From: Methanobacterium alkalithermotolerans
GTDB taxonomy: Archaea > Methanobacteriota > Methanobacteria > Methanobacteriales > Methanobacteriaceae
DNA length: 24,000 bases
Direction: 5' to 3'
Assembly: GCF_018141185.1 (NCBI RefSeq)
Contig: NZ_CP058560.1
Coordinates: forward strand, 903,447-927,446
How positions within the stretch are numbered: the stretch's first letter is position 1; the number at the start of each line of letters is the position of its first letter. Both the position numbers and the translations under genes were made by a program. Below the pieces are notes generated by a model. That model did no database searches. It worked only from the letters and a program-made list of their open reading frames with translations, and had not been told where the DNA came from. Below are positions 21,448 through 24,000 of this stretch, piece after piece.

Positions 21448-22569
21448 CTAGGCAAACATGTTCTTGGGCTCATTCTTTTCTGTTTGATAATTTTTAAGGG
21501 CGTATTCAATATCTTCCCTGTCCACTGTAGATTTATCCTCAGAAATGGCCTTGTGCAGAGCGGTTTTAAGTAATTTTTCTTTAATATCTCTTCCTGACAT
21601 TCCTTTGGATGATTGGGCTAATTTAGTACGGGATACTTTTACCTCCAGAGGCATGGATTCAATATATTTTTCAATCATTTCCCTTCTTTCATTCTCATCT
21701 GGTAGTTTAAATTCAATTTCCTCTTCGAATCTACTCCGGATGGCATAGTCTAGAAGTGAAGGATTATTAGTAGCTCCAATGGTAACCACCCCCAGGTTAT
21801 CTTTAATTCCATCCATTTCAGTTAGAAGGGCATTAACAACTTCGGATACATCCCCTCTTAAAGACTGGAATTTACGATCAAGGGCAATAGCATCAATTTC
21901 ATCAATAAATATCACAGAGGGTGAAGTTTTTGAAGCCAGATCATATAAATCGTGTATTTGTCGAGATCCATCCCCCACATGATCTCCAATTAAACTGGTG
22001 GCCTTTATCAGGTATAGAGGAACTTTTAGTTCCCCTGATAGTGATTTAGCCAGCATGGTTTTACCTGTACCGGGAGTACCATAAAATAGCACATTCCGGG
22101 GGGCCCATCCCTTGAAGTGTTCCGGGTCCTTCAGGTACTTTTGTATAATCTTACATTTCAATTTAGCCTGTTTTTGGCCAATCACATCTTCCATTTTGAT
22201 GTCAGTTTCCATATTTTTAATTTCATTGATTTCCTGATTATCAATCAAAATAATAGATGTTGAGGAAGTGATTTTAGAGTTATCAGGATGGGCTTTTATT
22301 ACTTTAAAAGCAAAGTCGGGCAATATTTTTTGATCAAATAAAAATGAACCCTCCACTGCATTAAAGCCCTCCCATTGTTCCCGGGCATAAATTTCAAAAA
22401 GTTGTTTATCAAATACTTCTATTTTGGGAGTATCAATTAAATTACAGCTGAAAGGGTACCCTACGGGTTGTAAAACAACCACTTTAGATTCTTTCAAGGA
22501 ATCCCTGGAATTTATGGATGATTTATTTTCAATAATATGTGAATCATAAACTATATTGTTAAATTTCAC
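21448..22569 (-). CDS. classical-clade AAA ATPase (single AAA module, MJ1494-like) with an N-terminal domain of about 130 aa
   Basis: GTG start with a GGTGAT Shine-Dalgarno. Walker A GTPGTGKT, Walker B VIFIDEID, second region of homology [17 protein letters not shown]. The stop lies 36 nt upstream of the DUF4013-like gene on the same strand. Confidence 0.8.
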
Positions 22570-22725: not shown

Positions 22726-22857
22726 CAAAAGTTGAACCCGGGGCAGAAATAGATACATTTGGCTAAGGATTAGAGGTTGATACCCACCCCAGGACAACGA
22801 TTGATAGAAACCACGAAACATTGCAAACACGAAAAATGATAATTTCATGGTATAAAA
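22726..22857 (-). repeat. 132-nt repeated element, copy A (candidate structured RNA; orientation inferred)
   Basis: Identical at all 132 positions to 22924..23055 by manual alignment. The strand is inferred from G-U pairs in the predicted helices. Confidence 0.85.
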
Positions 22858-22923: not shown

Positions 22924-23055
22924 CAAAAGTTGAACCCGGGGCAGAAATAGATACATTTGGCTAAGGATTAGAGGTTGATACCCACCCCAGGACAACGATT
23001 GATAGAAACCACGAAACATTGCAAACACGAAAAATGATAATTTCATGGTATAAAA
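22924..23055 (-). repeat. 132-nt repeated element, copy B
   Basis: Identical to copy A, at a 198-nt period. On the minus strand it is followed by the hairpin AAGGC-UUUU-GCCUU (22902..22915) and U-rich sequence. Confidence 0.85.
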
Positions 23056-23119
23056 TTCTTTATTTGACACTGCATTTTGAAATTTTATTTTTCATTAATA
23101 CATAGATTAATAGCATGAA

Positions 23120-23210
23120 CAAAAGTTGAACCCGGGGCAGAAATGGATACATTTGGTTAGGATTAGAGGTTGATACCCACCCCAGGACAACGATTGATGG
23201 AAACCATGAA
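23120..23210 (-). repeat. diverged or truncated third copy of the element (core of about 91 nt)
   Basis: Matches the first 92 nt or so (plus-strand reading) of copies A and B, with 4 substitutions (23145, 23157, 23199, 23207) and a 1-nt deletion. It is unrelated beyond about 23210. Confidence 0.8.
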
Positions 23211-23294
23211 TCAGCAAAAAATCCCTGGATAAGAAGGTTTTTTGGCAGAAGAACATTAACCAGGGTTTTGCTAGATTGGATGAAAAGTAGATTT

Positions 23295-23419
23295 TTTAGG
23301 TATGCCTAAAAACTCTATAGTTTAATGTGGATGTTTCCCATATATAAAGTTTAGGTATGCCTAAAACTACTTAATTAGAGGTAGGCTTTTCTAGTATATA
23401 AAAGTTTAGGTGTGCCTAA
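23295..23419. repeat. three copies at 55-bp period of the palindrome TTTAGGT(A/G)TGCCTAA(A), each adjoining a TATATAAA(A) box
   Basis: Palindromes lie at 23295..23310, 23350..23365 and 23405..23419. TATA-like boxes lie at 23340..23348 and 23395..23403. The inter-palindrome segments are weakly similar to each other (degenerate 55-bp tandem repeat). Confidence 0.8.
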
Positions 23420-23422
23420 TTT

Positions 23423-24000
23423 TTATTTCATATTATCAAAACAATTTTTAAGTCGCAGTGCATCCTGATCAATTAAAGGAGTCTCACAGATGATGGTTGA
23501 ATTCCAACCACTCTCTTTTAAAACTTCAAGTAATGGCTTTACCGGAGGTCCATATTCTTTTTCAGAGAGAATATGGTGTTTTTTTTCACCTGAATCGCCA
23601 AATTCAATGCGGGTAAAATGGCAGTGCAGATGATCTATATCCAGTTCATTGTCCAGTATATCTAAAATTTGATGATAGTCCTCTCTAGATTTAATTTTCC
23701 CACCACTCCGGGCATATAAATGTGCAAAATCAATAGTAGGCTGGAATTTATCCAGGGACTGACAAATATCAATAATTTCTTCTAAGGTACCTAACTGAGA
23801 TTTTTTTCCAGTGGTTTCCGGGGCAAAAGTGAAATTTTTTATTCCTTCTGCATCCAGTTTTTCAAGTACTGTTTCTAAAGATTCCTTACATTTTTTAAGG
23901 GCTTCTTCAGGAGTATATTTGGTATAAAATCCTGGATGGAAAACAATACGATAAGCTCCCATCCATTCTGCTGCCCGGGCAGACTGGACTAGTCTTTCAA
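23423..24000 (-). CDS. endonuclease IV / AP endonuclease family 2-like TIM-barrel protein, 5' end outside the window
   Basis: The reading frame stays open upstream of the track's Met through the window edge (..[16 protein letters not shown]..). Segments align with E. coli Nfo landmarks: VFHPG (NFHPG), APETTGK (VIENTAG), TIDFAHLYA (CIDTCHAFA), HCHF..GEKKHH (HLND..DRHH), IICETP (LILET). Confidence 0.65.

Follow-up and report, generated by a model that had tools for sequence, protein, structure and literature searches.

The window analysed here, a stretch of 24,000 nt from Methanobacterium alkalithermotolerans, contains three copies of a TTTAGG-N4-CCTAAA palindrome. These are likely to be operators of an iron-sensing DtxR/IdeR repressor, placed on two tandem promoters that probably drive a structured non-coding RNA. 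We predict from the sequence that each palindrome (box 1 to box 3, Table 1) is bound by one dimer of the DtxR/IdeR/TroR-type metal repressor encoded in this genome. The array would then consist of two tandem promoters on the minus strand, P1 (proximal) and P2 (distal), which share the middle box and are probably iron-repressible. The sites are present, they are tied to DtxR and to iron-uptake genes, and the layout and direction of the promoters and the structure of the RNA are conserved. The array is real and looks like a functional regulatory element of a well-known kind, and its main interest lies in the RNA that it would control.

Table 1. Features of the array, its surroundings and its predicted regulator. 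Positions are those of the window unless a contig or locus is named.
Feature	Position	Strand	Remarks
Box 3, distal operator (predicted)	23405..23419	none	core TTAGGTGTGCCTAA; PWM score 22.5
P2 (distal) TATA box TTTTATATA	23395..23403	-	1 nt past box 3
Box 2, shared operator (predicted)	23350..23365	none	PWM score 24.1
P1 (proximal) TATA box TTTATATA	23341..23348	-	1 nt past box 2
P1 start site (predicted)	23315..23318	-	23-26 nt past the TATA box, within conserved CTATAGAG
Box 1, proximal operator (predicted)	23295..23310	none	PWM score 26.4, the best of the genome
Hairpin 1, CCCUGG...CCAGGG	23216..23265	-	loop with UCUGCCAAAAAA, then U6 (23221..23216); from genus alignment and consensus fold
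Hairpin 2, CCUGGGGUGGG/CUGCCCCGGG (23131-23186), with U4 (23124..23121)	23121..23186	-	conserved part of copy 3 of the 132-nt element
132-nt element, copies 1 and 2	22726-22857, 22924-23055	-	hairpin 2 only; without box or hairpin 1
AAA ATPase gene (PRS2-type)	21448..22569	-	next protein gene downstream, same strand
AP_endonuc_2/xylose-isomerase-like TIM-barrel gene, 3' part	23423..24000	-	281 aa in the genome
DtxR-family regulator, 255 aa	C1:1989159-1989926		PF01325 + PF02742 + FeoA/SH3-like domain
Histone-fold gene	L019:1195-1476, L020:1185-1466, L034:1193-1465	-	genera g24 and g15

Architecture of the array

Direct reading of the DNA bears out the initial annotation, which recorded TTTAGGTATGCCTAAA twice (boxes 1 and 2), the variant TTTAGGTGTGCCTAA once (box 3) and a 55-bp period: the start-to-start distances are 55 and 55 bp. 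The 14-bp inverted repeat TTAGG-N4-CCTAA, the one-dimer form of an iron box, is exact in all three boxes. A search of the window for TTTAGGN4CCTAA with at most one mismatch gave six strand-hits, all within the three boxes; 1.2 are expected by shuffling, and none of 100 shuffles attained six. Over the 2.19-Mb genome the pattern TTAGG-Nn-CCTAA gave nine hits for n = 4, against 0-5 for each other n between 0 and 12. The boxes were also scored with a PWM trained on other genera (Table 1). In the reversed genome, which served as a control, hits reached 20.5, so the scan is not stand-alone evidence and it is the clustering and the context of the sites that count.

On the minus strand a TATA-like box comes right after two of the palindromes, as had been claimed: C-TTTTATATA after box 3 and C-TTTATATA after box 2. 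The start sites of P1 (Table 1) and P2 (near 23371-23373) were inferred from the usual distance between TATA box and start site in archaea. Box 3 abuts the P2 TATA box in the BRE position. By the predicted start sites, box 2 lies at about +6 to +21 of P2 as well as in the BRE position of P1, and box 1 lies at about +7 to +22 of P1. As expected of archaeal BRE/TATA promoters, the window has two boxes of the TTTATATA type, and in other genera the genes follow in the direction of the TATA box. Since the layout found throughout the family is box-TATA-box, the array is described as two tandem units that share box 2. The earlier suggestion of a dimeric factor that binds at the BRE-proximal position of two tandem promoters, both directed towards the 132-nt elements, is supported, and the putative factor can now be assigned to the DtxR/IdeR/TroR family.

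Boxes and TATA boxes are intact in four congeneric species down to 70% DNA identity, and the spacers drift. Box 2 does not vary among the four genomes of the genus, and two congeners keep box 3 as TTAGGTATACCTAA. The most distant congener (G045, 70% identity) has the proximal unit alone, with two boxes; P1 is its sole promoter here, the P1 TATA box is conserved and CTATAGA is kept at the same offset. The distal unit is thus the extra one relative to G045, and would have been either gained in the three closer species or lost in G045. Among these four genomes only G045 lacks a three-box array; G023 also has such an array, and in G020 three boxes lie at spacings of 46/46.

The segments between the palindromes had been called weakly similar, and the array was said to have arisen by duplication of a 55-bp unit. 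The similarity does not hold up. The 55-nt units match at 31 of 55 positions, nearly all of them in the box and the TATA box, and spacer-to-spacer similarity is not significant (143 of 2000 shuffles align as well). Duplication is a plausible origin, although the spacers of this array cannot show it. It has parallels in a congener with two boxes and in another genus with an exact 54-bp duplicate; in G023 two identical 54-bp units stand ahead of the feoA operon.

The predicted regulator and its sites in the genome

The genome has nine exact TTAGG-N4-CCTAA sites, three of them inside ORFs and six intergenic. The initial annotation had proposed that further sites next to TATA boxes would define a regulon, and the intergenic sites do fall at three loci: the array (three sites), a feoB promoter (two) and the region before the ATG of a dtxR-feoB operon (one). 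At the feoB promoter the two sites lie at a distance of 22 bp, right behind a CTTTATATA box. The dtxR site ends at the ATG of the gene for the 255-aa DtxR-family protein, and a second feoB comes next. Weaker PWM hits that were inspected are inside ORFs. The target set in this genome would be very small, comprising the two feoB loci, the regulator itself and the non-coding RNA.

The DtxR-family protein has the three-domain build of IdeR, with a winged-helix DNA-binding domain, a domain for metal binding and dimerisation and an FeoA/SH3-like domain. Its nearest solved relatives are IdeR (1fx7; the relation to IdeR has an E-value of 4e-24) and an 'iron dependent repressor' (8pvt). It keeps the residues that match H79, E83, H98, C102, E105 and H106 of IdeR, and also Q43, with which IdeR contacts bases in reading DNA; Met10 of IdeR is replaced by Glu. 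The NCBIfam score of the protein is slightly higher as MntR than as DtxR, both scores being below the cut-offs. In view of these scores and of the Glu at position 10, manganese or another metal may apply, and Fe(II) is presumably the metal sensed. We take the protein to be a repressor rather than an activator. Members of the DtxR family can activate too, as TroR does with dpsA (PMC10783522).

In the feoB operon behind the two boxes (G000:C1:560.5-564.7 kb; L001, L012), a 63-aa ORF and the gene of a second DtxR-like protein come after feoB. In this protein of 233 aa the match to DtxR begins only at about residue 50, and an N-terminal DNA-binding domain was not detected. A nicotianamine-synthase-like gene ends just upstream of the two-box feoB promoter.

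Conservation across the Methanobacteriaceae

The palindrome is present across the Methanobacteriaceae, where it is found upstream of feoA, feoB and dtxR. A BLAST search with positions 23100-23440 against 200 genomes of the family matched the box-plus-TATA module in 111 of them. Exact box pairs, defined as two boxes 39-69 bp apart, occur in 107 of the 200 Methanobacteriaceae genomes and in 18 of 27 genera, and the reversed pattern used as a control gave none. The usual layout on the TATA strand is a box, 2-3 nt, TTTATATA, about 30 nt and a second box. In the loci that were fetched, the gap between box and TTTATATA is 2-3 nt in 41 of 58 units and 13 nt in most others, and the gap between TATA box and second box is 28-33 nt in 44 of 58 (19-21 nt in one genus).

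The direction of the promoters is borne out by the genes of other genera: of 31 units, 14 have a gene start no more than 100 nt away in the direction of the TATA box, as against one in the reverse direction. The genes behind the pairs encode FeoA, FeoB, a histone-fold protein followed by FeoA, and a DUF362 Fe-S protein. DtxR-FeoA fusion regulators are also found behind pairs, and these start 0-1 nt past the second box. Among the 27 closest dtxR orthologues, taken from named Methanobacterium-type genomes, 24 have an exact box within 90 nt of the start, compared with 0 of 80 control stretches. With boxes at its own promoter, dtxR is predicted to be autoregulated.

In genera g24 and g15 the first gene behind the boxes encodes a histone-fold protein of 90-93 aa (CBFD_NFYB_HMF, E ~1e-5), and feoA follows it. 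A histone-like protein would therefore belong to the iron regulon.

It had been suggested that the spacing, as five helical turns, puts all copies on the same face of the DNA. The 55-bp spacing stands, but the helical argument is not general across genera. A spacing of 55 bp corresponds to about 5.2 turns. Spacings of 54-56 bp are the commonest (g1, which is the genus of the array, g14, g15, g17, g24 and g26), and other genera have 43-44, 46, 50-51, 60-61 (with a third box between), 65-68 and 70-71 bp. A ladder with 11-bp steps (43-44/54-56/65-66 bp) was considered and dropped, as it is broken by the genus-specific classes of 46, 50-51, 60-61 and 70-71 bp. Since the spacings vary, the constant feature is the position of the boxes relative to the TATA box and start site and not their helical phase.

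The predicted structured RNA downstream

Two conserved hairpins follow the promoters on the minus strand (Table 1). Hairpin 1 is a candidate core of the regulated small RNA, and its stem is one pair longer in G045. In G045 both sides of hairpin 2 have changed (CCUAGGGUAAG/CUUACCCUAGG) and the helix is kept nevertheless. Its G-U pairs can form only in the minus-strand RNA, and Alifold gave -30.3 kcal/mol for this strand against -24.5 kcal/mol for the plus strand. In the genus alignment no conserved ORF was found on the minus strand downstream of the array. Small ORFs in the 132-nt elements (49-70 aa, minus strand) were rejected as coding, as a 1-nt indel between copies shifts the frame. With Rfam 15 no match was found at the gathering score in the window or in 14 related loci, and an E-value threshold gave chance-level hits only; no tRNA is present.

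Each of copies 1 and 2 of the 132-nt element begins with a TATA-like TTTTATAC of its own. At the start of these copies (22826-22857 and 23024-23055, minus strand) TTTTATACC is followed by T5, a sequence that has no counterpart in copy 3. The two copies may have their own iron-independent promoter or may be reached by read-through alone. The U6 after hairpin 1 might stop most transcripts ahead of the 132-nt element.

We propose that the array works as follows. Each promoter would have one operator 1 nt upstream of the TATA box, where TFB must contact the BRE, and a second operator some 30 nt downstream, immediately beyond the start site. In cells with ample iron the repressor, loaded with metal, would sit on each of the three boxes and obstruct TFB/TBP and RNA polymerase. 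Under iron limitation it would dissociate, and both promoters would fire leftwards. The transcript would contain hairpin 1 with its CUGCCA loop and U6, and then hairpin 2, which is the 132-nt element.

In genera g5 and g17, as in g1, the box pairs have structured non-coding sequence behind them. Over these three genera 24 of 63 units have the CUGCCA loop behind boxes on the sense strand and a single one has it on the antisense strand; the stem sequences of the hairpin differ among the genera. It is possible, though short of probable, that the array controls an iron-starvation small RNA of archaea which is part of a wider, undescribed family in at least three genera. Such a family might be made up of the DtxR-box promoters of g1, g5 and g17, with 100-300 nt of structured non-coding sequence and no gene behind them, and with a CUGCCA loop on a stem that varies. 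Its units might often be tandemly amplified, with 2-4 copies in g5, mostly next to feoB.

The loop of hairpin 1 was compared with 3453 crude start regions in a duplex scan. The top hits were mixed (P-II, topo VI B, L18, 2-oxoacid oxidoreductase, McrB, glutaredoxin and aIF1A), and in this crude search the predicted targets had no enrichment in iron proteins or in any function.

Possible targets of the promoters

A different target is offered by the AAA ATPase gene, which is the next gene on the same strand. The boxes would still control promoters, the true target would be the AAA ATPase/DUF4013 operon, and positions 23320-22570 would be its long structured 5' leader. In single-copy congeners the boxes are merely 330-350 nt upstream of the AAA gene, and in the closest genera they adjoin it as well. 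However, the gene is present in 61 of 61 genomes and has upstream boxes only in g1 and its four closest genera (g9, g11, g15 and g24), and most of the 30 genomes with the AAA locus that were scanned have no box upstream of it. Outside g1 the boxes upstream of the AAA gene point away from it, the TATA boxes of g9, g11, g15 and g24 facing the histone-fold gene and feoA. In g1 the module has therefore been inverted, so that it is now directed at the RNA. The stretch from the promoters to the AAA gene contains U6, U4 and additional T-runs, and the TATA-like sequences carried by element copies 1 and 2 also speak against a long AAA leader. The AAA ATPase gene is probably not the primary target, and we regard the reading of the whole intervening region as its leader as unlikely.

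The comparison with the nearest genera also allows the array to be seen as a left-over of an ancestral feoA-operon promoter that drives nothing useful in this genus. The promoter of the histone-fold and feoA operon occupies the same AAA-adjacent position in those genera; g1 no longer has that operon at this position, and its module is inverted. Against this, the boxes and TATA boxes have been retained in the four species while the neighbouring sequence diverged. A third box and its TATA box are present in three of the four (G045 having two boxes), the RNA helices downstream are kept by compensatory changes, and two other genera share the CUGCCA loop behind their boxes. A functionless relic is on these grounds very improbable.

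The palindromes had alternatively been interpreted as RNA hairpins which, with the U-rich TATA sequences, would form a threefold terminator for the AP_endonuc_2 gene. This gene reads convergently into the array and its stop codon (23423-23425) is 3 nt from box 3. U-rich sequence follows each hairpin on the minus strand, and the hairpins of boxes 3 and 1 are more stable than shuffles (z ~ -3.8). The stems, however, are weak, consisting of 5-8 A/U-rich pairs with two G-C pairs (-3.4, -4.5 and -6.3 kcal/mol), and a terminator scan found no terminator-like site. Archaeal termination relies on oligo-U and not on hairpins. Only U4 is found past boxes 3 and 2, in place of a long oligo-U or a G+C-rich stem with at least five U. 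In more than 100 genomes identical boxes lie 5' of feoA, feoB and dtxR, so that the boxes are explained without any role at a 3' end. We give this interpretation hardly any weight. The AP_endonuc_2 transcript probably ends at a T-run inside the array, which would be incidental. A CRISPR remnant, a mobile element and replication-origin repeats were dismissed as well, because many genomes have the same 14-mer at the promoters of dtxR, feoA and feoB.

Comparison with known systems

The predicted operators closely resemble those of TroR from Haloferax volcanii. The ChIP-seq motif of TroR is TTTAGGC-NNN-CCTAAA, often present more than once per promoter and responsible for iron-dependent repression (PMC10783522). 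TroR represses iron-uptake genes in an iron-dependent manner, and either of two copies of the motif suffices (PMC10783522). This motif is the TTTAGG-N4-CCTAAA of the array, and in both cases several copies are found at a promoter, beside the TATA box. TroR, however, comes from another class of archaea, and its described targets are protein-coding (siderophore, transport and dpsA). The accessible text mentions neither tandem units that share an operator nor a small-RNA target, and the term 'sRNA' is absent from it (PMC10783522).

The array motif is exactly the one-dimer consensus of 14 bp, TTAGGNNNNCCTAA, as redefined for IdeR of the actinobacterium Saccharopolyspora erythraea (PMC8464063). TTAGG-N4-CCTAA also matches the opening 14 nt of the classical 19-bp box (PMC7762939). 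The regulator itself is IdeR-like in its three domains, in most metal ligands and in Gln43, and unlike IdeR in having Glu for Met10. Bacterial IdeR/DtxR sites are usually 19 bp long, bind two dimers on opposite faces and overlap a sigma-70 promoter. In contrast, the sites here are single-dimer sites about 55 bp apart around an archaeal BRE/TATA promoter.

MDR1 of Archaeoglobus fulgidus also has several operators at one promoter, its own promoter included; these lie at and downstream of the start site and are not known from the BRE position. It is an archaeal homologue of DtxR with metal-dependent repression (Bell et al. 1999, as cited in PMC3074139). Its motif, GTT-N8,9-AAC, differs from the TTAGG-N4-CCTAA of the array.

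The type of switch is already known, and its probable RNA target is not. In bacteria, small RNAs are controlled by iron repressors in the cases of Fur with RyhB or PrrF1/PrrF2 and of IdeR with MrsI. As with RyhB, PrrF and MrsI, the candidate small-RNA gene here stands right behind an iron-repressor operator, and tandem amplification like that of PrrF1/PrrF2 is found here and in g5. It differs from these RNAs in its unrelated sequence, in the archaeal transcription apparatus and in having no known chaperone. By analogy, the array RNA might work like RyhB, PrrF and MrsI without being a member of their group.

Methanogens are among the most iron-hungry organisms known, and to our knowledge the way in which they sense and ration iron has barely been studied. 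We found one methanogen paper, in which a link between DtxR and FeoAB was inferred from proteomics only (PMC8516115). For the Methanobacteriaceae the regulon now becomes concrete, with one operator sequence, one regulator and a conserved promoter architecture. If the proposal is true, the RNA would be the methanogen counterpart of RyhB, PrrF and MrsI; no archaeal post-transcriptional iron response was found in the literature searched. A confirmed RNA would for the first time open up small-RNA-based iron economy in archaea to study. The box-TATA-box module could also be of use as a compact iron-switchable promoter in the new genetic systems for Methanothermobacter and Methanobrevibacter.

Related arrays in other genomes

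Genus g5 (L174-L181; for example L174:543-1500, L176 and L178) has 2-4 tandem units of about 310-330 nt. Each unit consists of a box, 13 nt, TTTATATA, 36 nt, a second box and about 250 nt that have no ORF of 40 aa or more on the same strand. Three hairpins are present in the unit, the middle one with AUCUGCCA(A/C)A in its loop and the last one formed by GGTGTTTAAA...TTTAAACACC and followed by a T-run. The arrays are divergent to a feoB gene in five of eight loci and have no Rfam match.

Genus g17 (L021, L022, L027, L031, L037-L043) has box-TATA-box promoters with the 55-bp spacing, often two of them about 530-620 nt apart. The non-coding sequence behind them includes UUAUCUGCCAAAAA as well as a hairpin, GAUCAAAAGU...ACUUUUGAUC, that is conserved and has GCCUUAAAUCACACUC in its loop.

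The box pairs of genus g14 (L018, L023, L024, L025, L028, L029) have a spacing of 54 bp and are followed by a leader with AATCACTCC, which could pair with a Shine-Dalgarno sequence. The leader is followed by a strong GGAGGTGA and then by a basic ORF of roughly 32 aa (MGRTKSGICGKK...), which is conserved. This looks like a tiny ribosomal-type protein under metal control.

The boxes are also found outside the Methanobacteriaceae. Four termite-gut MAGs of 'Bathycorpusculum'/Nitrososphaerota (L115, L116, L118, L120) contain dtxR orthologues of 52-56% identity with the same boxes before the gene. Three of the four loci have two boxes 38-40 bp apart and L118 has one. One of the boxes, TTAGGTTAGCCTAA, is identical to the bacterial consensus half. 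The presence of dtxR boxes in these genomes may be due to gene transfer between gut archaea.

By far the densest operator array seen is at G154:C1:262174-262244 (L047), where four boxes are arranged head to tail with a 19-bp period, TTAGGTATACCTAAGAAAG being repeated three times ahead of the fourth box.
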